A stretch of 64,000 nt of DNA from Clostridiales bacterium (lineage in GTDB: Bacteria > Bacillota > Clostridia > Christensenellales > Aristaeellaceae): positions 4,385 through 68,384 of the forward strand of contig SVHC01000010.1 in NCBI GenBank assembly GCA_015056055.1. The letters are read 5' to 3'. Under the pieces are notes generated by a model, which did not search any database, had not been told where the DNA came from, and worked only from the letters and a program-made list of their open reading frames with translations. Numbering within the stretch: the first letter of the stretch is position 1; every line of letters begins with the position of its first letter. Below, piece after piece: positions 5,954-38,060 of the stretch. A program made the position numbers and the translations under genes.

Positions 5954-6027
5954 TGGCAGGGGCAGAAGGACTCGAACCCTCAACAAAGGTTTTGGAGACC
6001 CACGTGTTACCATTACACCATGCCCCT
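5954..6027 (-). tRNA. trnW: tRNA-Trp (anticodon CCA), CCA end encoded
   Basis: Minus strand reads AGGGGCATGGTGTAATGGTAACACGTGGGTCTCCAAAACCTTTGTTGAGGGTTCGAGTCCTTCTGCCCCTGCCA. It folds with a 7-bp acceptor AGGGGCA/TGCCCCT, D stem GTGT/ACAC, anticodon loop CU-CCA-AA, and T arm GAGGG-TTCGAGT-CCTTC. Confidence 0.9.
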
Positions 6028-16890: not shown

Positions 16891-17105
16891 ACGTTGATTC
16901 CTCCAGTTCCGGAAGAGCTTCCTATAGAGAAGTGTTCCGGTATATACAAATACAGTTACCTATAGTATACTTGAAACGGTAGAAAATGTAAACTTATTTT
17001 TTGAAGGAATTATAGATTCCTTCATACAAGAACCAAGTGTAATTTGCTTTGGCTTTTTTGAAATTGGAACAGGAATGTTAAAAATGATAAAAGATGAAAA
17101 AAGTA

Positions 17106-17134
17106 TTGCAAATTGATGCAGAATTTGGTAATAT
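17106..17134 (+). promoter_or_regulatory. sigma-A promoter (extended -10) driving the riboswitch-adhesin transcript
   Basis: TTGCAA (17106-17111), a 17-nt spacer, then TGgTAATAT (17126-17134). Confidence 0.6.
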
Positions 17135-17274
17135 ATTACCCGAGAGATACCATTTCTTACTACTGCTTGAAGAAGGGAGGTTTTTTACTGTTTGCACTCC
17201 GGAAGACACCAGAGCGTCCGAAGGTTTGCAAAAGGACAAGAATCTGCTTTTTTAACCCATACTGTAGAGAGAAA

Positions 17275-17360
17275 TACTGAAAAGGGCAAACCATTCGAAA
17301 GGATGGGGCGCAAAGCTAAGGGGCCTAAGGCCGCAAGGTTATGGCAGCCCGGCCGCCAAT
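17275..17360 (+). promoter_or_regulatory. c-di-GMP-I (GEMM-I) riboswitch aptamer
   Basis: AAAAGGGCAAACCAUUCGAAAGGAUGGGGCGCAAAGCUAAGGGGCCUAAGGCCGCAAGGUUAUGGCAGCCC. The core GGGCAAACCAUUCGAAAG..UGGG.CGCAAAGC is nearly identical to the Vibrio cholerae Vc2 aptamer as I remember it. The first hairpin is capped by a GAAA tetraloop. The second hairpin carries the 11-nt tetraloop receptor CCUAAG...UAUGG. Confidence 0.85.
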
Positions 17361-17398
17361 ATTTCGATTCTTTCCAATTATAGAGAGGAGAACGAAAT
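17361..17398 (+). promoter_or_regulatory. putative expression platform: hairpin sequestering the adhesin RBS
   Basis: ATTTCGATTCTTTCC (17361-17375) can pair with GAGGAGAACGAAAT (17385-17398), which contains the GAGGAG RBS 2-9 nt before ATG 17400. That gives about 13 pairs with one bulge. Confidence 0.45.
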
Positions 17399-17399
17399 A

Positions 17400-20240
17400 A
17401 TGGCAAACAAGTTTAAGAGAAGCTTCGCAATGGTTCTGGCACTGTGTATGTTGGTACTCGCATCTCCCGTGCATGCTCTGGCCGAAGAGAGCGTTTACCC
17501 GGATGACATTAACGCAGACCTGACTGTTGACCAAACCAATGGTACGATTGAAATCGTTTTCACCCCCGTTGATGGCGCAGAGGGCGGAGATCTGGAATGG
17601 GAATCCGATCTGACCCTGGGCGAAAATATTGAAACCGAACTGAGCGATCTGAGCGTTACTGAGGAAAAAACCGAAGATGGCGACACGATCGTTACCGAAA
17701 GCGCTACCATCGTTACCGAAGGTACGCTGGAGAACGGTGCAGACAGCAATGGTGAGGAAGTTCTTGAAGAGATCACTGACACCGAAGCTGAAGATGCGCA
17801 GCAGAATGGTGAAATAACCATCAATGGCGAGGAAACTCATGTTGAAATCACCACTACCGAAGCCGACGGTACCGTTACTGAAACGGATGTAACCGACGGT
17901 TACGAGAAGATCGAGTGGACCGGCGACGGCATCGAGAACATCGAAGACGTTATCGAAGGTCTTGAAGATCTTGAAGGTCTTGAAAACATTGAGCTTCCCT
18001 CTGTGGAAATCGAACTCAATCCCGGTGAAACTACCGAGCCCGTCACTGAAAAGAGTGAAGTGCCGGTAACCGGTACTGTTGGCGACGAAAAGGAAGGCGA
18101 AGACGACACTGAGTACAACTACACCGATATCACTATCGAAGTAGATCGTACCGTGAGTGCTGAGGCTTCCGATCTGGTAGTAACGCCTCCCAGCGCTACT
18201 AACAACTATGATTCTCCCGTTGATCCTACCACGGATACGGACAAGAACTGGGATACCAGCTCCAAGACTAAGGAAGATCCTCAGCGCAACGGCTTGGAAA
18301 AGCCGGCGCCCGGTTTGGTTGACCTTGAGGATGTTCTCATGTATGAACGCTGGCAGGAAGGCGACGATATTCCTGAAGGATTCCACGTTGGCGACATCAA
18401 GGAAGATGCAAAGGGTAATTACATTATCGCTGATGAGCCTCAGGAGATTCCCGAAGGATATGACTTCTTCCACTCCGGCATGGGTGAATACACCGACGCC
18501 GCAGCTCCTGTGTTTAAGTACATCGTTTACCAGCGCGACGAGAGTGGCGAAATCATTTACGGCGAAGACGGTAAGCCTCTTGTTGATGAGGAAAAATCTT
18601 ACCTGATGAATGGTTCTAATGGCAAAGCTCCCGAAAGCGGTATGGACTATCAGCCCGGTCAGCTCGGTTTGACGAATATCGTTTGCGAGCGCTATACGGA
18701 AGAAGATCTGAAAAACGACCTGATTCCGGAAGGCAAGAATGTCGGTGATATCAAGTATGATGAAAACGGCAAGCCTGTGGTTGATGAGGAACAGACAGAG
18801 CTTTTCTACGCCTACTGCGCCGACTTCCTGGTAGAAACAGACGCAGACGCTATGCACTGGTACAAGATGGAAAACCTGGAAGACAGTGGTCACTACACTG
18901 AGGAAGATGCTCAGAAGCTCCGTGCCATCGTTATGAATGGCTACTGGGGTGATGCAGAAGTAGGTACTGTGGAGCAGATTGTTGCCAATCTGACCGAGTA
19001 TGTCCAGGACATGCCTGAAGCCACTGATGAAGAGAAGGCAGAAATGCTGGACCTTCTGCTTGGTATGAAGGAGCATGAAGCTCTGGCTGTTACCCAGGCT
19101 GCAATTTGGGCTTATTCTGTTAACCGCACTAACACTGCCTATATGGATGGCAAGCTTCCTGCTGGTGTAGATAATGTTGAAGTTATCGGCGCCCAGAGTG
19201 CAATCAAGTGTTATGCGTACGATGCGAAGAAGAACAAGACTTCTTGGTATACTGAGTACAAGGCTGCTGTTGATCAGATGAAGGACGGCGGACTGCCCCT
19301 GAATGGAGCGTACGTTAATCTTTCTGAAGAAGTAATGGCAGAACGAGTAGCGGAAGCTATTGAAAGCGATGCCCGCATGGCTCTGATGTTTGAGTACCTG
19401 ATGAGCCTGGAAGGTATTCCGGACACCGATGAGGACGTAACCACGGTTATCAACGAGAACAATTTCATCGAAGATGACTCCCTGTCTCTGGTAATTCATG
19501 ACCGCGTTGAGGATCATGAAGACAACAAGGACGACAACCACGACAATGACGTTTACGACACCGACCTGAAGTTCAGCCTGGCTTTTGTTCCCGGCGAGAA
19601 AGATGAACTGCTGGTTTATCTGTATGGTATCGGCGATGAACCCATCGTACGCCGCCTCAGCGGTACGGGTAACGATGGTATCGAGGATATCACCACGGAC
19701 ACCGACGCAAACGGCAATACTGTTTACGTATTCAAAGATCTGCAGCTGAGCGAGAACTCCAATACGAAGTTCGACCTCCGTCTGGACGGCGTTCATCACC
19801 TGAATCAGGGCGTTTACCTCTACACTGCTCAGGGCGGTCGCCTTGCCTCCCAGACCTTTGTTGGTATGGCAAGCGGTTCGCAGGATATCGACATCACTGC
19901 GAGCATGACCATTAGCTTCAATGTAGATGAGAACAACCATGTTGTTGCAGAACGTTATTGGCACAACGAATCCGACCCCGAAACCACTCCGCCCACTAAG
20001 GATGAACCCCCGGTTATCTCCGAACTGCCTCCGAGTGAGGACGAGGAAGAGCCCACGCCCCCGGTTCGTTATCGTCTGTCCCGTAACGTAGGTCAGCTGG
20101 AAACCATCATTGATGAGGAAGTTCCGCTGGCTGAAGTTCCTGAGACCGGTGATATCTCCATGGTATGGTTTGCCATGGTACTGGTAGCTGGCATGGGACT
20201 TTGCATGCTGAAACTTGCTGAGAAAAAGTGCAAGGCATAA
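17400..20240 (+). CDS. sortase-anchored surface adhesin with a thioester (TQxA) domain
   Basis: Signal peptide MANKFKRSFAMVLALCMLVLASPVHALA and a very acidic D/E/T-rich N-terminal region. Thioester Cys context FYAYCADF and Gln motif LAVTQAAIWAYS. C-terminal sorting signal EVPETGD, then hydrophobic ISMVWFAMVLVAGMGLCML, then KLAEKKCKA. Confidence 0.85.
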   Translation: MANKFKRSFAMVLALCMLVLASPVHALAEESVYPDDINADLTVDQTNGTIEIVFTPVDGAEGGDLEWESDLTLGENIETELSDLSVTEEKTEDGDTIVTESATIVTEGTLENGADSNGEEVLEEITDTEAEDAQQNGEITINGEETHVEITTTEADGTVTETDVTDGYEKIEWTGDGIENIEDVIEGLEDLEGLENIELPSVEIELNPGETTEPVTEKSEVPVTGTVGDEKEGEDDTEYNYTDITIEVDRTVSAEASDLVVTPPSATNNYDSPVDPTTDTDKNWDTSSKTKEDPQRNGLEKPAPGLVDLEDVLMYERWQEGDDIPEGFHVGDIKEDAKGNYIIADEPQEIPEGYDFFHSGMGEYTDAAAPVFKYIVYQRDESGEIIYGEDGKPLVDEEKSYLMNGSNGKAPESGMDYQPGQLGLTNIVCERYTEEDLKNDLIPEGKNVGDIKYDENGKPVVDEEQTELFYAYCADFLVETDADAMHWYKMENLEDSGHYTEEDAQKLRAIVMNGYWGDAEVGTVEQIVANLTEYVQDMPEATDEEKAEMLDLLLGMKEHEALAVTQAAIWAYSVNRTNTAYMDGKLPAGVDNVEVIGAQSAIKCYAYDAKKNKTSWYTEYKAAVDQMKDGGLPLNGAYVNLSEEVMAERVAEAIESDARMALMFEYLMSLEGIPDTDEDVTTVINENNFIEDDSLSLVIHDRVEDHEDNKDDNHDNDVYDTDLKFSLAFVPGEKDELLVYLYGIGDEPIVRRLSGTGNDGIEDITTDTDANGNTVYVFKDLQLSENSNTKFDLRLDGVHHLNQGVYLYTAQGGRLASQTFVGMASGSQDIDITASMTISFNVDENNHVVAERYWHNESDPETTPPTKDEPPVISELPPSEDEEEPTPPVRYRLSRNVGQLETIIDEEVPLAEVPETGDISMVWFAMVLVAGMGLCMLKLAEKKCKA

Positions 20241-20320: not shown

Positions 20321-20358
20321 AGGGAGCGAAGGAATACCTTCGCCCTCTTTTTTTTTTT
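20321..20358 (+). terminator. rho-independent terminator of the adhesin gene
   Basis: AGGGAGCGAAGG-aatac-CTTCGCCCTCT followed by a run of about 10 T. Confidence 0.8.
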
Positions 20359-20424
20359 GCAAAAGAATGTTATACTATATAACAAGAGAAAGCGCCGGAA
20401 GGCGGAAAAAAGGAGTTGTCAAAA

Positions 20425-21369
20425 TTGAAAAAATTGCTGGCTGCCTTTCTGGCAGTGTGGATGGGCGTAACTGGTTTGGGCTGTGCGCTGTGTGAGGATG
20501 CGTATATTGATTCTGATTGGAGCAGCTATGAGGGGGAGATGATCTCTCAGTCTCGTGCTGCGGTACCGCTGCTGTTGGAAGCTACCGCTCCGGGTGTGTT
20601 GGTGGAAGAAAACGGGAAGGCACTGATCGACTATTCCAATACCGACGATGGATATGTGATGGTGCTGTATAAAGAGGGAACCAGCAAAAAGCTCAAGGTG
20701 CAGATCAAGGGACCTTCCACGACCTATACATATACCATTTATCCCGGTGAGTGGGCAGTGCTGCCGCTGACAGACGGAAACGGAAAGTATCAGGTCAAGG
20801 TGTTCAAGAATGTGTCCGGAAACTCCTATTCCAATGTGCTGGCTGCAAAGACAACGGTGGAACTTACCGATGAATTCGCACCGTTCCTCAGACCCAATCA
20901 GTATGTCAATTACAGCGCTTCCAGCCGTGCTGTGGAACTGGCGATGAATCTGACGCAGGGCATTTACCAGCCGCTGGGCAAAGTAGAAGCGATTTATAAT
21001 TACGTGGTAACGTATCTTTCCTACGATAAGGAAAAGGCCAAGAATGTCAAGAGCGGTTATCTGCCGGTGCTGGATGAGATACTGGAATCCAAGAAGGGCA
21101 TCTGCTTTGACTACGCGGCGCTGATGACGGGTATGCTGCGCAGCCAGGGTGTTCCCTGCAAGATGGTGTTTGGCTATGCGGGAAGTGCATACCATGCCTG
21201 GATTAGCGTGTGGAGCGAGGATACCGGCTGGGTGGATGGCGTAATTTTCTTTGACGGTACCACTTGGCAGCGTCTGGATCCTACTTTTGCTTCCTCCGGT
21301 AATCAGAGCGAATCGATTATGGAGTATATCGGCAACGGTAAGAACTATAAGGAAAAGTATTTCTATTAA
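20425..21369 (+). CDS. secreted transglutaminase-like (Cys-His-Asp core) protein
   Basis: Signal-like KKLLAAFLAVWMGVTGLGCALC. Transglutaminase core KKGICFDYAALMTGMLRSQGVPCKMVFGYAG..YHAWISVW....WQRLDPT. The likely start is TTG 20425, 9 nt after AGGAG; the track start 20416 abuts the RBS. Confidence 0.75.
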   Translation: MKKLLAAFLAVWMGVTGLGCALCEDAYIDSDWSSYEGEMISQSRAAVPLLLEATAPGVLVEENGKALIDYSNTDDGYVMVLYKEGTSKKLKVQIKGPSTTYTYTIYPGEWAVLPLTDGNGKYQVKVFKNVSGNSYSNVLAAKTTVELTDEFAPFLRPNQYVNYSASSRAVELAMNLTQGIYQPLGKVEAIYNYVVTYLSYDKEKAKNVKSGYLPVLDEILESKKGICFDYAALMTGMLRSQGVPCKMVFGYAGSAYHAWISVWSEDTGWVDGVIFFDGTTWQRLDPTFASSGNQSESIMEYIGNGKNYKEKYFY

Positions 21370-21425
21370 GCTGTTCAAAGTACCGAAGAGGATGGACCAT
21401 CCGCGGATGGTTTGTGGATGAAGAT

Positions 21426-22472
21426 ATGAAAGTGCTTGAATTGACAAATTTGGAAAAAGCTGATCTTTTTAAACAGTTGGCGCTGCTGATGCATTCCGGC
21501 GTGACTGCGGGAGATGGACTCAGTCTGTTGGCTGAAGGGGAACCCAACGAAAAAATCCGCGAGATGCTTGTGAAGATGACGGAGAGTGTAGATGCCGGTG
21601 CGTATCTCTCGCAGGCTTTTGAGGAAACCGGAAGTTTTCCTGCCTATGTGACGGGTCTTTTGCAGATGGGAGAGCAGGTGGGACGAAGCGAGGAAACGCT
21701 AACTGCTCTTTCCGACTATTACGAGCAGAAGGAGCGGATGGAGCGGCAGCTGGTCAGTTCTCTGACCTATCCCGCGATTTTGCTGCTTTTGATGGCTGTT
21801 GTGATCATCATTCTGCTCAGCCAGGTGTTGCCGGTGTTCAACGATATTTATGCTTCCTTAGGAGGAAAGCTTACCGGCGTTGCTGGTGGATTGCTGCTGG
21901 CAGGCCAACTTCTGGATAAGGCGATTCCTGTGCTGTGTGGACTGCTGGTGGTAGTTCTGGGCTTTTTTGCGGTGTTCTCTCTGCATAAGGAGTGGAGAAA
22001 GAAGATTCTGGGATTCTTCTCGGCACGCTGGGGAGATAAGGGTATTTTCCGCAAGATGAATAATGCCCGCTTCGCGCAGGCGCTGTCGATGGGATACACC
22101 AGCGGTATGCCGCTGGAGGATGCGGCAGATCTGGCTGCTCTGCTACTCAAAGACATTCCGCCGGTTCAGGAAAGATGCAAAAAATGCAGCGAAATGCTGC
22201 AGCAGGGCGAGGATCTGGCTGTGGCGTTGGAGGCGGCGGAGCTGATGCCTCCGTCTACCTGCAGAATGCTGACTCTGGGTCTGCGCAGCGGAACGGGCGA
22301 CAGCGTGATGGAAGATATCTCCCGCAGGATGCAGGAGGACGCGCATAATGCTTTGGAGAGTATTGTGGCTCGGGTGGAGCCGGCGTTGGTGCTGGTGACC
22401 TCCGTACTGGTGGGCGTGATTCTTCTGTCGGTGATGCTGCCGCTGATGAATATTATGACAGCGATCGGGTGA
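21426..22472 (+). CDS. type II secretion / type IV pilus platform protein (GspF/PilC family)
   Basis: Two T2SSF-like halves (LFKQLALLMHSGVTAGDGLSLL... and FAQALSMGYTSGMPLEDAADL...), each followed by TM segments. The start is ambiguous (GTG 21414 or ATG 21426). Confidence 0.75.
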   Translation: MKVLELTNLEKADLFKQLALLMHSGVTAGDGLSLLAEGEPNEKIREMLVKMTESVDAGAYLSQAFEETGSFPAYVTGLLQMGEQVGRSEETLTALSDYYEQKERMERQLVSSLTYPAILLLLMAVVIIILLSQVLPVFNDIYASLGGKLTGVAGGLLLAGQLLDKAIPVLCGLLVVVLGFFAVFSLHKEWRKKILGFFSARWGDKGIFRKMNNARFAQALSMGYTSGMPLEDAADLAALLLKDIPPVQERCKKCSEMLQQGEDLAVALEAAELMPPSTCRMLTLGLRSGTGDSVMEDISRRMQEDAHNALESIVARVEPALVLVTSVLVGVILLSVMLPLMNIMTAIG

Positions 22473-22476
22473 GAAC

Positions 22477-22791
22477 GTGAAGAAAAAAAGAGGATTGCAG
22501 ACGATTCTTTCCTGCGTAGTTATGCCCGTGCTGGCAATTTTGGTGCTGGTATGCTTTTTAAGCGCGGTTTCCAATCTGACAAGCGGGCGGCAGAGCGAGG
22601 ATATGGACAAGCTGGAAGATGTGCTTCGCCGCGCAGCGGTAGCCTGCTATGCTGCGGAGGGGATCTACCCGCCGGATCTGGAATATCTGCAGGAGCATTA
22701 TGGTGTGCAGATTGACGAAAGGCGCTATGTGGTGGATTACGTGGCGATTGCGGATAATCTGATGCCGGATATCACGATTCTGGAAAAATAA
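22477..22791 (+). CDS. small bitopic pilin-like protein (no Glu+5)
   Basis: GTG start 4 nt after the GspF stop. MKKKRG-LQTILSCVVMPVLAILVLVCFL, then an ~70-aa soluble part. Confidence 0.55.
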   Translation: MKKKRGLQTILSCVVMPVLAILVLVCFLSAVSNLTSGRQSEDMDKLEDVLRRAAVACYAAEGIYPPDLEYLQEHYGVQIDERRYVVDYVAIADNLMPDITILEK

Positions 22792-22815
22792 GAATGGACA
22801 AGCAATGGTGACAGG

Positions 22816-23298
22816 ATGAAAAAGAAAAACCAATTGGGCAGCGTGCTGGTTTTGCTGGTGTTTGCGGTGTTCATGGTCTCGGTTTTAATGGTGCTGCTCA
22901 CCGGTGCGGATGTGGTAGAGAAGATCCATAGCCGCGATCAGGCCAGCTATGACCACAGAACGCTGGTACAATATATCACTACCCGGGTTCGTCAGGCCGA
23001 TCAGCGTGGCATGGTGGATGTGCGCAGCTTTGGCGACGGTGATGCATTGGTGCTTACGGAGGAAATAGACGGAGATTTGTATGAAACTCTGGTCTATTGT
23101 TCCGATGGGTATTTGAGGGAACTGTTTGTGGAAGCGGGTCTGGAAATGGATGCGGAATTTGGCGAGGAGATTCTGCCGATTCAGCGCGTTTGTTTTCAGG
23201 ATGAAAATACCTATATCCGCGTACAGTTGACGCTGACAGAGGGAGAGGAAGAGGAAATGATTCTTTCTCTTCGCAGCGAGAGGGGGACAATGCGATGA
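22816..23298 (+). CDS. small bitopic membrane protein (160 aa), pilus/pseudopilus accessory candidate
   Basis: MKKKNQLG-SVLVLLVFAVFMVSVLMVLL N-terminal anchor. I recall similar clostridial proteins being binned as a DUF family, but this is unverified. Confidence 0.55.
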   Translation: MKKKNQLGSVLVLLVFAVFMVSVLMVLLTGADVVEKIHSRDQASYDHRTLVQYITTRVRQADQRGMVDVRSFGDGDALVLTEEIDGDLYETLVYCSDGYLRELFVEAGLEMDAEFGEEILPIQRVCFQDENTYIRVQLTLTEGEEEEMILSLRSERGTMR

Positions 23299-23693
23299 AG
23301 AGCAAAGCACCTCTTGCGCTGATGGAGCAGCTGGTGATGATTCTGGTGTTCGCACTGGCTGCGGCATTGTGTTTGCAGATTTTTGTGCTTTCGGGCAATC
23401 TTTCCGTGACAAGTGAAACCCGCGACCGGGCAGTAACGGCAGTTCAGAATACAGCAGAAACGCTAAAACTGTGCCGGGGCGATTTGGAAGAGGTTCAGAA
23501 ACTGCTGGGTGGAGAGAAAACCGAAGATTGCTGGCAGATGATTTTGACTGGAAAAGAAACGCTGTGTGTAACGGCAGAACGGATTGCAGACGAAGCTGAA
23601 GCACTGGGCGAGGCCAGAGTGTATGCAGTCAACGATAAAGGCAGCGTGGTTTTTGAAGTGAATGTATGCTGGCAGGAGGAATGGGATGGATAA
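23295..23693 (+). CDS. pseudopilin-like protein with non-canonical leader
   Basis: MKSKAP-LALMEQLVMILVFALAAALCL. LALME aligns with the pilin F-T-L-I-E motif and conserves the Glu, but the residue at -1 is Pro rather than Gly. The ATGA overlaps the upstream stop. Confidence 0.55.
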   Translation: MKSKAPLALMEQLVMILVFALAAALCLQIFVLSGNLSVTSETRDRAVTAVQNTAETLKLCRGDLEEVQKLLGGEKTEDCWQMILTGKETLCVTAERIADEAEALGEARVYAVNDKGSVVFEVNVCWQEEWDG

Positions 23694-24093
23694 GCAGCAG
23701 AAAAAGTTTCAGGCTCCCATGGTGGGAGGAAGCTCCTTGCTGGTGATTTTTGCCATTCTGTGTCTGACGGTTTTTGCTCTCCTGGGGTTTAGTACCGTGC
23801 AGGCAGACCGTAGGCTGGCAGATGCCAGTATTAAGGCCGTAGAAGGGTATTATAAGGCTGATAGCGAGGCAGAAAGGATTCTGGCCGCGATTCGCAGCGG
23901 CGAGGCTCCTGCAGGGGTACAGTGCGATGAAAACGTGTATCGTTACGCCTGTACCGTTTCCGACACTCAGAAGCTCTTGGTAGAGGCACGGGTTGAAAAC
24001 AGGGACGAATGGGAAATTCTGCGCTGGCAGACGGTTTCAACGGCAGAGTGGAATGAAGAAGAGTATATTACTGTGTGGGACGGCGAGAGTTAG
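23686..24093 (+). CDS. small bitopic membrane protein (135 aa), pilus accessory candidate
   Basis: MDKQQKKFQAPMVGG-SSLLVIFAILCLTVFALLGF. AGGAGGA RBS and an 8-nt overlap with the upstream gene. The track start 23662 is an extension. Confidence 0.55.
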   Translation: MDKQQKKFQAPMVGGSSLLVIFAILCLTVFALLGFSTVQADRRLADASIKAVEGYYKADSEAERILAAIRSGEAPAGVQCDENVYRYACTVSDTQKLLVEARVENRDEWEILRWQTVSTAEWNEEEYITVWDGES

Positions 24094-24124
24094 ACAGATT
24101 TGAGAAAAAAGGCAGGCATTGTAT

Positions 24125-25180
24125 ATGGCTGATTTGATGTATTATCTGCAGCAAGCGGTAGAGAAACACGCTTCGGATATTTTTATTGTGGCAGGTGCTC
24201 CGGTGAGCTTCAAGCTGGATGGAAAAGTATGCCATATAAGTGATCAGAAGGTTATGCCGGAGGAAACGCTGGAACTTATTACCGAGATTTACGGAAATGC
24301 CAAACGTTCCATGGACGCATTTCTTCGAAACGGTGATGATGACTTTTCCTTTGCTGTGCCGGGAATGGCGCGCTTCCGTGTAAATGCCTATCGTCAGAGA
24401 GGCTCACTGGCAGTAGTGGTACGCGTAGTGTCTTTCAATATCCCGGACTGGAAAAGCATCCATATACCGGAGAGGATTATGGATTTGGCAAATGCGGGTC
24501 ACGGTATGATTCTTATGACCGGCACTGCGGGCAGCGGAAAGTCTACCACACAGGCATGTATTATCGACCGTATTAACCAAACACGGGATTGCCACATTAT
24601 TACGCTGGAAGATCCTATTGAGTTTTTGCACCGCAACCAACGCAGCATTGTGAGTCAAAGAGAAATCGCGGTGGATACCGCTGACTATCTTTCTGCGCTG
24701 CGTGCCTGTCTGCGTCAGGCACCGGATGTGATTCTTCTGGGCGAAATGCGTGATCCAGAAACAATTCGTACCACCATTACAGCGGCGGAAACCGGTCATC
24801 TGATTATTGCGACGCTGCACACCAAAGGAGCTGTCAATGCCATTGATCGCATTATTGACAGTTTTCCGAGTGAGCATCAGGCGCAGATTCGCATGATGCT
24901 TTCTACGGTATTGCAGACTGTTGTTTCACAGCAAATGCTGCCTGACCAACATGGTGGAATGGTGCCCGCCTTTGAAGTGATGCATGTCAATAGTGCCATT
25001 CGCAGCCTGATTCGCGACAATAAGAGCCATCAGATTAATAATGTGATCGCTGCCGGCGGAAAAGAAGGCATGATCACCATGGATCAGGCTATTCTGGAAT
25101 TGTATAAAAATGGCGCGATTACAAAGGATACAGCCTTGGATTACGCTGATGCGCCGGATATGATGAGGCGTCAACTGTAA
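24125..25180 (+). CDS. pilT: PilT-family (retraction-type) hexameric ATPase
   Basis: Alignable along its length with Pseudomonas PilT as I remember it: ASDIFIVAGAPVSFKLDG, FSFAVPGMARFRVNAY, Walker A GTAGSGKST, ITLEDPIEF, ILLGEMRD, AAETGHLIIATLHT. About 350 aa, lacking the N-terminal extension of PilB/GspE. Confidence 0.85.
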   Translation: MADLMYYLQQAVEKHASDIFIVAGAPVSFKLDGKVCHISDQKVMPEETLELITEIYGNAKRSMDAFLRNGDDDFSFAVPGMARFRVNAYRQRGSLAVVVRVVSFNIPDWKSIHIPERIMDLANAGHGMILMTGTAGSGKSTTQACIIDRINQTRDCHIITLEDPIEFLHRNQRSIVSQREIAVDTADYLSALRACLRQAPDVILLGEMRDPETIRTTITAAETGHLIIATLHTKGAVNAIDRIIDSFPSEHQAQIRMMLSTVLQTVVSQQMLPDQHGGMVPAFEVMHVNSAIRSLIRDNKSHQINNVIAAGGKEGMITMDQAILELYKNGAITKDTALDYADAPDMMRRQL

Positions 25181-25701: not shown

Positions 25702-28254
25702 TTAGATGCCGACCTCTGCAGGTGCAGGGGGAGTAGATTTGGTCAGCGAGGGGATACGCAGTTCGATTTTATTGTTTTCCACCAATTCGGCAAAGATTTC
25801 AATAAGGTTGGGGTCGAACTGTTTTCCGGCCTCAGAGCGCAGAATGGACAGAGCCTCATGTACGGGCGTAGCAGATTTGTAATTGCGGATAGAGGTAATA
25901 GCATCGAAGGAATCAGCAATACAGAGGATACGACCGGTGATGGGAATGTTGGTCTGCGCCAAGCGACGAGGATAACCGCGGCCGTCGTAACGCTCGTGGT
26001 GAGAGAGAACGGCGGGAATAACGTAATCCAGTGAGGGAAGATGCCGGATGATGTTGACCGCATTTTCAACATGGCTCTTCATCACTTCGTACTCTTCTGC
26101 AGTAAGCTTGCCGGGCTTATTGAGGATTTCTTCACGGATGCCGATTTTACCGATGTCGTGCAACAAACCGGCTTCGCGGATAATCTCTACCAAATCGGAG
26201 GACATGCCTGCAGCCTTGGCAAGTTCAGCGGCGTAATAGGCCACGTTCTGGGAGTGCTGGAACGTATAATGGTCTTTGGCATCGACCGCTGCGGTAAGAG
26301 CGTAGATGGTACTGGCATGTTCATCGTAACCGCTTTTGTAAAGCGTGTTGCTGGGTTCTCTGCGGTGAATATCGGCGGAGTACATCTGCACGGCATTTTT
26401 ACCGGTGCGCTTGACGGTGTAAACGGTGGTATCGGCATTGCGATAGAGTTCCTTGGCGGAAGAAGCCATGTAGGGAGCAGCGCAGATACCGATGCTGGCC
26501 GTCATGGTACCGGCAGGTTTACTGCCGGCGAAGGAAGACGTGATATTGCTGATTTGTTCAGCTACGTTATCGGCCAGACATTTGGCGGAGTAGATATCAT
26601 AGCCGGGGAGAATCAGGGCAAATTCATCGCCTCCGATACGGGCAGCATAGCCGTTTTCGTTGACGGCAGATGCCAGAATGGCGGCAATACTACGGAGTAC
26701 GGCGTCACCTTCATTGGTACCGTAAAGCTGATTGTACTGCTTGAAATCGTCGATATTGATCAGGCACAGGGAAAGAGCGGTGTCCTTGCACTTTTCAAAT
26801 TCACGATCAAGAATATCGTAGAAGAATTTGAAGTTGAGCAGGCCGGTCATATCGTCCCTCTGCGCTTCTTCCACGGCTCGTTCGTAATTGTAGGCGTTCT
26901 GAACGGCACTGGCACATACGGTAGCAAGAGACTGCAGGAAACGAAGGGTATCGGGATGCTGCGAGAACTTTCCGTGACGATCGGGCAGAATCATGAAGCC
27001 TATCAGGTCACCTTCGTGATTCATAGGGATGAAGCAATCAAGCTGTTGGTTGATCAGAAGGGCTTTTTCCTTTTCCCAGAGGCTGCGATAGAGAGTTCTG
27101 CGGGAAAAGTCCTGGGATGTTACATAGCCATGCTTGTCCTTCAGATATTTGACCAACGGATGGGTGGCATCAAAGGAGAAACTCTTTTCTTCCAGAGGAT
27201 TGAGAGTGTGTTCAATGCGATATGTGCCGCCGGAATCACGGACAAGCACAAAGAGACGGTCTATATCGAAGACTTCCTGTGCTGTGTTGGTCATGCTCTG
27301 CAGGATTTCACTGACACTCATCATGTGAGATAGGTTTTCAGAAAAATGATTGAGAGCGTTGTTGCGCTTCTGATCCTTGCGAGAGAAAATCGCATCGCAC
27401 AGGGAGTTGATGGCCAGATACAGCAGGCCAATCAACAAAAAGAGGAAAACAGCAATGATCATCAGTGTGCTGGTGTAGCCCAAACCAACGTTCTGCATGA
27501 GAAAACGCTGGAGAACCAGAGCCAGATCTGAGAAAATCGCCAGACCGATGACGGCGGAGATGATTATATAATTGGACTTGGAAAGAAGGATGGTCATGCG
27601 GAAAAGCCGTTTCCGGTAAAGTGCGTAGAAAAGGAAAATTGCGTTGCAAACACCGGAGAGCATATCCATAGGAAGACCTATGAACATGGGCAGGGTAGTG
27701 AGCAGATGACCCATGACCAGAACAGCCAGACCACCCATTACAGGCGTCAATTGGCGCAGGGCGATGTGATTTCCGCGGCAATGACGCCAAGCCAGAATAC
27801 ACATTTGCGCCAAAGTAGGCACAATTAAAGCAAAGAGGAAATAAATGTGCCAATTGTAGTGATAGAGGAAGGTGGGAGTATCGCCGGTTCGAATGACTTC
27901 CGGCAGGGGAATAAAGAAATTGGTGAGGCAATTGAATACAAACAGTGCCAGGTAGAAGAACATCCAGAATTTGCGGCCATGGCTATTGGTTTCATCCAGA
28001 AAAGCCAGAACAAACTGATAATAACCATAGGCAACCATCATCATACCCAGAAGGGAAACATGGTGCCAGAAGTTGACATTTGGCCACAATTCAATTCGCA
28101 TGCCCAGCGAGCCGCCGTTCCACAAAAGCATGATGCCCAGAAGCAGTGAGAAGGAACGAAGAGCTTTTTCCTTGGGCTTGGAAACCAAGAAGGTCAGCAG
28201 AAGAAAGAGGTAGCAGAAGATGGAGAAGACGGCAATCCAACTATATCCATTCAT
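25702..28254 (-). CDS. polytopic membrane sensor with GAF-like, GGDEF and HD-GYP domains (c-di-GMP synthesis/degradation)
   Basis: About 300 aa of TM helices, then RIGGDEFALILPG (intact GGDEF), then HD-GYP motifs LLHDIGKIGI and HHERYDGRGYP. Confidence 0.85.
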   Translation of the reverse strand: MNGYSWIAVFSIFCYLFLLLTFLVSKPKEKALRSFSLLLGIMLLWNGGSLGMRIELWPNVNFWHHVSLLGMMMVAYGYYQFVLAFLDETNSHGRKFWMFFYLALFVFNCLTNFFIPLPEVIRTGDTPTFLYHYNWHIYFLFALIVPTLAQMCILAWRHCRGNHIALRQLTPVMGGLAVLVMGHLLTTLPMFIGLPMDMLSGVCNAIFLFYALYRKRLFRMTILLSKSNYIIISAVIGLAIFSDLALVLQRFLMQNVGLGYTSTLMIIAVFLFLLIGLLYLAINSLCDAIFSRKDQKRNNALNHFSENLSHMMSVSEILQSMTNTAQEVFDIDRLFVLVRDSGGTYRIEHTLNPLEEKSFSFDATHPLVKYLKDKHGYVTSQDFSRRTLYRSLWEKEKALLINQQLDCFIPMNHEGDLIGFMILPDRHGKFSQHPDTLRFLQSLATVCASAVQNAYNYERAVEEAQRDDMTGLLNFKFFYDILDREFEKCKDTALSLCLINIDDFKQYNQLYGTNEGDAVLRSIAAILASAVNENGYAARIGGDEFALILPGYDIYSAKCLADNVAEQISNITSSFAGSKPAGTMTASIGICAAPYMASSAKELYRNADTTVYTVKRTGKNAVQMYSADIHRREPSNTLYKSGYDEHASTIYALTAAVDAKDHYTFQHSQNVAYYAAELAKAAGMSSDLVEIIREAGLLHDIGKIGIREEILNKPGKLTAEEYEVMKSHVENAVNIIRHLPSLDYVIPAVLSHHERYDGRGYPRRLAQTNIPITGRILCIADSFDAITSIRNYKSATPVHEALSILRSEAGKQFDPNLIEIFAELVENNKIELRIPSLTKSTPPAPAEVGI

Positions 28255-37986: not shown

Positions 37987-38060
37987 TGGCAGGGGCAGTA
38001 AGACTCGAACTCACAACAAAGGTTTTGGAGACCCACGTGTTACCATTACACCATGCCCCT
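37987..38060 (-). tRNA. trnW: tRNA-Trp (anticodon CCA), second copy
   Basis: Identical to copy 1 through position 47. The T arm differs by compensated changes (GTGAG-TTCGAGT-CTTAC versus GAGGG-TTCGAGT-CCTTC). Acceptor and CCA end are identical. Confidence 0.9.

Follow-up and report, generated by a model that had tools for sequence, protein, structure and literature searches.

The DNA analysed here (the window) is a stretch of 64,000 nucleotides from contig SVHC01000010.1 of a Clostridiales bacterium (GenBank assembly GCA_015056055.1). On its forward strand, at 17400-20240, lies a gene for a predicted thioester domain (TED) adhesin, and the leader of this gene carries an aptamer of the class I cyclic di-GMP (c-di-GMP) riboswitches, also called c-di-GMP-I or GEMM-I. 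The 3' end of the aptamer is shared with a hairpin predicted to bury both the Shine-Dalgarno (SD) sequence and the start codon. Here we describe the aptamer, this hairpin and their counterparts in related metagenomic contigs, and we consider it likely that together they form a translational switch that turns the adhesin on at high c-di-GMP. The features on which the argument rests are listed below in window positions; the hairpin and its helices are those of the minimum free energy (MFE) structure.

17271..17279 (+): 5' strand of predicted helix P1, GAAAUACUG, pairing with 17357-17365 (CAAUAUUUC), with a C17277 x A17359 mismatch
17275..17360 (+): c-di-GMP-I (GEMM-I) aptamer, from its RF01051 match
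17291-17296 with 17301-17306 (+): helix P2 with GAAA loop 17297-17300, from sequence and model alignment
17314-17354 (+): P3, with receptor halves CCUAAG 17324-29 and UAUGG 17340-44, a short stem and GCAA loop 17333-36
17355..17404 (+): sequestering hairpin, burying the SD core GGAG 17387-90 and AUG 17400-02
17355-58 with 17401-04 (+): outer helix of the hairpin, GCCA with UGGC, including the UG of the AUG
17360-66 with 17393-99 (+): middle helix, UAUUUCG with CGAAAUA
17368-74 with 17383-89 (+): inner helix, anti-SD UUCUUUC with GAGAGGA, covering the SD
17400..20240 (+): gene for a TED surface protein of 946 aa, from translation and Pfam; hypothetical protein E7335_04445 in the source annotation

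Aptamer identification

The whole window was scanned with Rfam cmscan at gathering thresholds, and the scan was rerun on 17000-17420. The whole-window scan returned three matches, namely two tRNAs and the c-di-GMP-I family RF01051 at 17275-17360 on the forward strand, the latter scoring 73.3 bits where the gathering threshold is 35 (E 1.8e-12). Its alignment covers the complete model (positions 1-87 of 87), and the posterior probabilities are close to 1. RF01051 is also the best member of its clan for the window aptamer, which is therefore not assigned to RF03167, and a scan of the leader at E<=10 gave nothing credible besides RF01051. An initial annotation, made from the sequence alone, had placed a class I aptamer in the adhesin leader and had named a search with RF01051 as the check; with a score well above the gathering threshold, the element is almost certainly a class I c-di-GMP riboswitch aptamer.

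The structural details proposed in that annotation also held, with one correction of position. The first hairpin (P2) ends in a GAAA tetraloop, and the second (P3) holds the 11-nt receptor CCUAAG/UAUGG around a GCAA-capped stem, both at the positions listed above. The core string GGGCAAACCAUUCGAAAGGAUGGGGCGCAAAGC is present as well, at 17284-17316 (33 nt) instead of 17283-17313, an offset of 1-3 nt; this core is almost identical to that of the Vc2 aptamer. By its sequence the architecture is of type 1, in which the GAAA tetraloop and the 11-nt receptor are predicted to dock two side-by-side hairpins. In the model alignment the pairs G17286-C17311 and C17287-G17310 bracket P2, which identifies G20 (Vc2 numbering) as G17285 and A47 as A17312; the equivalent of C92 is C17356, within the 3' GCC, and the ligand-contact bases are all present. 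P2 and P3 were also recovered by RNAalifold, with compensatory changes, from 17 distinct related leaders. We infer that the aptamer binds its ligand.

The downstream gene

Pfam family PF08341 (TED) matches residues 471-627 of the translated product with 25.5 bits against a cut-off of 22, which bears out the earlier claim of a thioester adhesin downstream of the aptamer. The translation begins with a signal peptide, MANKFKRSFAMVLALCMLVLASPVHALA, and ends in a VPETG sorting signal, a hydrophobic membrane span and a KKCKA tail. In an alignment of 15 sequences (the window's and 14 homologues), C473 (in YCAD), Q566 (in TQAAIW, generally TQxAIW) and the motif PLAxxPxTG are invariant. From these sequence features the product is a sortase-anchored thioester-domain adhesin, with C473 and Q566 as the predicted thioester cysteine and glutamine. 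A PDB sequence search with the adhesin found no relative.

P1 and the sequestering hairpin

The predicted helix P1 has the same register as in Vc2, the pair G17279-C17357 corresponding to G14-C93 and G17279 standing six bases before G20 (17285). Nuclear magnetic resonance of Vc2 places G14 at the top of P1(a), beside the ligand guanine that pairs with C92, and shows that this helix needs the ligand in order to form (PMC11705072).

The hairpin at 17355-17404 is contained in the MFE folds of both 17255-17425 (-50.4 kcal/mol) and 17270-17420 (-47.9 kcal/mol, z = -3.7). According to the initial annotation, 17361-17375 can pair with 17385-17398 and bury the ribosome-binding site; this pairing is real, and it is only part of a larger hairpin that also takes in the start codon and the 3' tail of the aptamer. 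The duplex between aptamer tail and start region has an energy of -14.6 kcal/mol, compared with -2.9 +/- 1.5 (standard deviation) for shuffled start regions, of which none in 2000 reached the observed value, and no other part of the leader pairs better with the tail than the start region does. C92 and the 3' strand of P1 serve at the same time as the 5' arm of the hairpin (17355-66), so that a ligand-bound aptamer and a complete hairpin are mutually exclusive.

Folded alone, the hairpin has an energy of -19.3 kcal/mol, which drops to -5.0 kcal/mol once P1 takes 17357-65, and withdrawal of the P1 strand raises the unpaired probability of the AUG in the window leader from 0.34 to 0.97. For these figures the bound state was modelled by folding the platform alone; forbidding the tail pairing within the leader let aptamer strands mispair with the start region. 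The distance from aptamer to ATG is 39 nt, and the consensus scan found no intrinsic terminator between the two, as had been claimed from the sequence. An extended P1, in which upstream AGAGAG (17266-70) would pair with the anti-SD and thereby free the SD, was considered and rejected: constrained folding keeps the anti-SD/SD helix paired, and AGAGAG is not conserved among relatives.

Homologous leaders

Metagenomes from rumen, camel and gut yielded homologues with 30-43% identity to the adhesin, and the contigs that carry them were retrieved (loci are given below with an L number). A GEMM-I aptamer lies directly before the ATG in 11 of the 12 adhesin genes compared (the window's own and 11 homologues), and in the tandem adhesin arrays of L002, L004, L184 and L138 each gene has its own riboswitch copy. 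The exception is L003, where an adhesin homologue without riboswitch has a BTAD-type regulator as neighbour. This locus (L003:1012-8439, GCA_054269055.1) holds two tandem TED homologues, both without riboswitch, beside the Trans_reg_C/BTAD regulator, which itself has a faint GGDEF match; the regulator may be a protein-based substitute for the RNA switch.

The sequestering helix is the consensus that RNAalifold gives for the 17 distinct leaders. Its cells are paired in 97.2% of cases, a share that falls to 14-42% on sliding the partner; two compensatory pairs were counted, and the observed values were matched by 9 of 500 shuffles. P1 is kept in register in all leaders examined, with 92.8% of cells paired against 30-54% with the partner slid (17 leaders). 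Withdrawal of the P1 strand weakens the hairpin in every one of 17 related leaders, from between -9.4 and -21.0 kcal/mol to between -1.5 and -6.6 kcal/mol, and the shared-strand design of the platform is kept in 17-22 leaders. The pairing persists where the sequence diverges, as GGUUUCA/UGAAAUU in L130, AUAAA/UUUAU in L124 and UCAAUC/GAUUGA in L154. In L184a the P1 pair U75-A61 turns to C-G while the sequestering helix retains a G.U pair, and in L133, L135 and L183 P1 is lengthened by CUG:CAG.

Locus L124:2723-2805 on the reverse strand, from a Clostridia bacterium metagenome-assembled genome (MAG) of water buffalo cecum, has an A at the G20 position (UAAUAGCAAAC) and retains the start-pairing platform. 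Beyond the adhesin homologues, a protein-pattern scan of genome contigs returned no relatives, and in a DNA scan of genome contigs with an aptamer 17-mer about 10 of 120 matches were real Firmicute aptamers, the rest being mostly chance matches in GC-rich genomes. The 17-mer also led to L014:938-1198, L053, L073 and L085 (Clostridiales and Oscillospiraceae MAGs), where two to three GEMM-I aptamers stand in tandem; their platform differs from that of the adhesin leaders, the tail pairing with a segment immediately before the SD. In the distant human-gut TED homologues L140-L176 no GEMM-I core was found by regular expression, an Rfam check not having been made there.

Proposed mechanism and regulatory sign

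Without ligand, the tail G17355-G17366, comprising the C92 equivalent and the whole 3' strand of P1, would pair with CGAAAUA-A-UGGC at 17393-17404 and, together with the inner anti-SD/SD helix, would form a hairpin of about -19 kcal/mol that masks the SD and the AUG. With c-di-GMP the junction would close, C17356 would pair with one ligand guanine and P1 would form between 17271-79 and 17357-65. The base of the hairpin would then be blocked, the AUG and the spacer would be single-stranded, and a weak anti-SD hairpin of about -5 kcal/mol would be left, which the 30S subunit could open, the adhesin thus being made at high c-di-GMP. P1 is by far the weaker of the two competing helices, so the switch would probably be decided during transcription, and the ligand would have to bind before about 17393 is synthesised.

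Folding of the leader gave no ligand-free structure that exposes the SD or the AUG, and this, together with the mutual exclusion of bound aptamer and full hairpin, makes a translational ON switch the best supported reading. Sequester/anti-sequester platforms are a recognised option for class I c-di-GMP switches (PMC4933901). It is highly probable that control is exerted at translation initiation of the TED adhesin gene, as the initial annotation had suggested; the leader is terminator-free and its modelled hairpin masks both SD and AUG. That c-di-GMP raises adhesin translation is what we infer from the platform, and we hold it to be probable; the three elements jointly (class I aptamer, translational control and ON sign) are a little less secure and in our view still likely.

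The regulatory sign had been left open in the initial annotation, with reference to the adhesin-linked switches of Clostridioides difficile, which are class II ON switches. The literature bears this out: of the C. difficile switches, those of class II are ON and the functional ones of class I are OFF, and a class II ON switch stands before each of two adhesins, CD2831 and the thioester domain protein CD3246 (PMC6366702, PMC11477304). The sign itself need not be left open, as the shared-strand design predicts ON and class I ON switches before adhesins are known (Bc2/cap, PMC4933901). Adhesins turned on by high c-di-GMP are known from C. difficile, where the TED protein CD3246 is one of them, and from Bacillus thuringiensis, where the switch is Bc2/cap (PMC6366702, PMC11477304, PMC4933901).

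Several points weigh against a translational ON switch. Every functional class I switch of C. difficile is an OFF switch (PMC6366702). The SD core remains mostly paired in the residual hairpin (unpaired probability about 0.28), so the extent of activation is uncertain. By nearest-neighbour energies, a fold in which the aptamer and P1 are enforced is about 12-16 kcal/mol less stable (-34.7 compared with -46.6 or -50.4), and the switch would therefore need ligand or tertiary energy, or co-transcriptional kinetics, to compensate; it is this lower stability of the bound-like fold that leads us to propose kinetic control during transcription, assisted by tertiary and ligand contributions that are absent from such energies. 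P1 is A-U-rich with one mismatch, and its energy of -5.6 kcal/mol was reached by 347 of 2000 shuffles. Its covariation, one compensatory pair (U-A to C-G), is not above that of shuffles, because the leaders are so alike that the power to detect covariation is low. Such weakness is what would be expected of a helix that requires ligand, and the case for P1 rests on register and comparison and not on energy.

The opposite sign would follow if, as in Vc2/tfoY, c-di-GMP favoured the hairpin that masks SD and AUG and the adhesin were repressed. Vc2 is itself of class I, and its ligand-bound P1 leads to translational repression (PMC11705072); the OFF sign of the C. difficile class I switches points the same way, as does the inner anti-SD/SD hairpin, which persists in the modelled bound state. 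Such an OFF switch is nevertheless improbable, since 17355-66 supplies C92 and the P1 3' strand and so makes the bound aptamer incompatible with the full hairpin. No alternative ligand-free fold that frees the SD or AUG was found in the leader, and an adhesin shut off at high c-di-GMP would be the opposite of the characterised adhesin cases.

It is also unlikely that the aptamer acts mainly on the level of the transcript and not directly on initiation, through Rho-dependent termination or decay of untranslated mRNA or through stabilisation of a leader RNA, or that it is a decayed, non-responsive copy. A preprint on Vc2 describes this aptamer as governing the stability of an upstream small RNA as well (bioRxiv 10.1101/617340), in C. 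difficile roughly one c-di-GMP riboswitch in three does not function (PMC6366702), and the long conserved 5' leader at the present locus hints at additional functions on the RNA level. A decayed copy is, however, hard to reconcile with an aptamer score far above threshold and with contact bases that are all intact. The aptamer and its start-pairing tail are kept before genes whose proteins share 30-43% identity, which argues for selection on this platform. The leader has no intrinsic terminator, and effects of Rho or decay would be secondary to the same translational switch. A different cyclic dinucleotide as the ligand, either 3'3'-cyclic GMP-AMP (3'3'-cGAMP), as in GEMM-Ib, or the ligand of the RF03167 variant, is very improbable. 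In GEMM-Ib, cGAMP selectivity goes with A20, and the relative L124 has an A at this position; moreover, several homologous leaders match RF03167 (c-di-GMP-I-GGC) better than RF01051, the best clan match flipping between the two families among L004, L007, L011, L115, L127, L130, L133, L135, L138 and L183-L185. The window copy, however, is best matched by RF01051, and its G20, A47 and C92 are of the c-di-GMP type. In the alignment the relatives called as RF03167, with 61-71 bits against a gathering threshold of 59, share the window's bases at positions 20, 47 and 92, so that on sequence these calls seem to reflect closely matched scores and not a change in the binding site. A translational ON switch responding to c-di-GMP is thus the reading that we prefer.

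Putative promoter and conserved 5' leader

Upstream of the aptamer the following features were identified.

17107..17135 (+): putative sigma-A promoter, with -35 TTGCAA 17107-12, a 17-nt spacer and extended -10 TGgTAATAT 17127-35
17143..17183 (+): conserved 5' leader block, consisting of GAGAGAUACCAUUUCUU, a linker and SD-like GAAGAAGGGAGGU
17191..17232 (+): conserved hairpin with apical loop CCAGAGC 17209-15, formed by UUUGCA 17191-96/UGCAAA 17227-32, CC/GG and GAC 17205-07/GUC 17216-18

The promoter scores 8/12 against the consensus and is absent from the list produced by the promoter scan. In about 15 related leaders a TGnTATAAT-like -10 box lies 6-8 nt upstream of the same conserved GAGG block, and this conservation relative to the leader blocks makes the leader of about 260 nt described in the initial annotation plausible; the transcription start is predicted near 17143, giving a leader of about 257 nt.

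Sixteen leaders share GAGGAUUAUAUUUCUUC, followed by SD-like GUCAGAAAGGAGG, and neither in the window nor in the relatives does a start codon follow this SD-like block at the right distance. No Rfam match was obtained within the upstream module even at E<=10, and no common fold was found for the 5' leader block, the folds of individual sequences disagreeing with each other. In the hairpin at 17191-17232 the loop motif is conserved across 16 leaders while the stems vary; with their own flanks the CCAGAGC hairpins have a mean energy of -13.2 kcal/mol, compared with -8.0 kcal/mol with swapped flanks (standard deviation 4.0, n=176). Among the loci fetched, the module was found only together with GEMM-I and the adhesin, at 17143-17232 in the window and also in L002, L004, L007, L009, L011, L133-L135, L138 and L183-L185.

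It is conceivable, if rather doubtful, that 17143-17232 (GAGG...AUUUCUUC, SD-like GAAAGGAGG and the covarying CCAGAGC hairpin) constitutes an undescribed cis-acting RNA module that cooperates with the aptamer. Such a module could provide a second input, as a binding site for a protein or ligand, or could act as a ribosome-binding stabiliser of the STAB-SD kind; in either role it would make the adhesin leader a two-part control region and not a simple riboswitch. We take GAAAGGAGG to be the STAB-SD mRNA stabiliser sequence of B. thuringiensis cryIIIA, and treat this as a lead only.

An open reading frame (ORF) of 53 aa at 17094-17255 (+), a metagenome gene call in L001, was rejected as probably spurious: it has no Pfam match, overlaps the promoter and leader, and is unconserved in relatives. 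The divergent intergenic region also holds, at 17036-17062 (+) and shortly before the adhesin promoter, a terminator-like hairpin with a U-run (CCAAGUGUAAUUUGCUUUGG UUUUUU) that might insulate this promoter.

Genomic surroundings

Downstream of the adhesin start codon the neighbourhood contains the following features.

20326..20352 (+): terminator-like hairpin GCGAAGG-AAUA-CCUUCGC (20326-43) with a U-rich tail, after the adhesin stop codon, from the consensus scan
20416-21369: transglutaminase-like gene, downstream of the adhesin
21414-22472: T2SS-F gene, downstream of the adhesin
22816-23298: DUF4860 gene, downstream of the adhesin
24119-25180: T2SS-E ATPase gene, part with the genes listed before it of a type IV pilus-like cluster
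25702-28254 (-): gene for a 7TM-GAF-GGDEF-HD-GYP protein of 849 aa, 5.5 kb downstream of the adhesin and syntenic in L004/L005

Judged from its sequence, the hairpin at 20326..20352 may render the riboswitch-adhesin unit largely monocistronic. No gene other than the adhesin can be attributed to the riboswitch with confidence, and read-through into the genes at 20416-25180 is conceivable. The type IV pilus-like cluster is ended by a strong terminator hairpin at 25212-50, also from the consensus scan. From its domains, the 7TM-GAF-GGDEF-HD-GYP protein may synthesise c-di-GMP, break it down or do both, and may thus be a local source or sink of the riboswitch ligand.

An ORF of 879 aa at 17325-19964 (-) is antisense to nearly all of the adhesin gene; it is probably no real gene and results from the biased, acidic-rich codon usage on the coding strand. 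Elsewhere in the window, two tRNA genes at 5957-6027 (-) and 37990-38060 (-), separated by 32 kb, are near-identical, their differences being confined to the T arm; with the anticodon loop CUCCAAA they would be tRNA-Trp(CCA).

Significance and comparison with known systems

The aptamer is an ordinary representative of RF01051, Bc2/cap has already provided a class I ON switch before a sortase-anchored adhesin, and none of the present findings overturns current understanding. New are the gene family, TED adhesins of uncultured Clostridiales, the compact platform that starts within the aptamer tail, and the conserved upstream module, which is a small lead to a new RNA element. The predicted switch would tie c-di-GMP directly to the production of a covalently binding (thioester) adhesin in uncultured rumen and gut Clostridiales, across a whole family of adhesin genes that are each preceded by a separate copy of this riboswitch and platform. 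The class I switches characterised in Gram-positive organisms work through termination, those of C. difficile being OFF switches; the present leader offers a compact candidate for a Gram-positive ON switch of this class that acts on translation, and its unit of 130 nt at 17271-17404 could serve as a c-di-GMP ON sensor.

Among known systems, Bc2 before cap/cbpA of B. thuringiensis and B. cereus (PMC4933901, PMC7423583) resembles the window leader in having a class I aptamer within a long 5' untranslated region (228 nt in Bc2, about 257 nt here), in preceding a cell-wall-anchored Firmicute adhesin, and in being an ON switch that works by repression and de-repression, as is predicted here. It differs in that Bc2 uses an intrinsic terminator and antiterminator, whereas the present leader is terminator-free and its competing helix would mask SD and AUG, and in that the adhesin there binds collagen while the one here is a TED protein. 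Cdi-2-1 (CD3246) and Cdi-2-3 (CD2831) of C. difficile (PMC6366702, PMC11477304) place sortase-anchored adhesins, of which CD3246 is a TED protein, under riboswitch control with c-di-GMP as the ON signal, as is predicted here; type IV pili are also co-regulated by c-di-GMP in C. difficile, and a pilus-like cluster lies near the adhesin here. In contrast to the class I aptamer and predicted translational control in the window, these are class II switches with an unrelated fold that act by transcription termination.

Vc1 (gbpA) and Vc2 (tfoY) of Vibrio cholerae (PMC6366702, PMC11705072) are of class I and terminator-free, and the P1/G20/C92 register of Vc2 is the same as here; Vc1 is moreover an ON switch before a colonisation or adhesion factor. 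Both belong to a Gram-negative host, and Vc2 is an OFF switch in which masking of the ribosome-binding site takes place at a distance from the aptamer, whereas the masking helix predicted here starts inside the 3' tail of the aptamer. Tandem c-di-GMP-I aptamers have been reported as enriched before transglutaminase-like (COG1305) genes in Bacillota (PMC12452182), and the tandem aptamers at L014, L053, L073 and L085 fit this enrichment. The window shares with these systems a transglutaminase-like gene (20416-21369), which follows the adhesin, and differs from them in having a single aptamer, placed before the adhesin and not before the transglutaminase-like gene.

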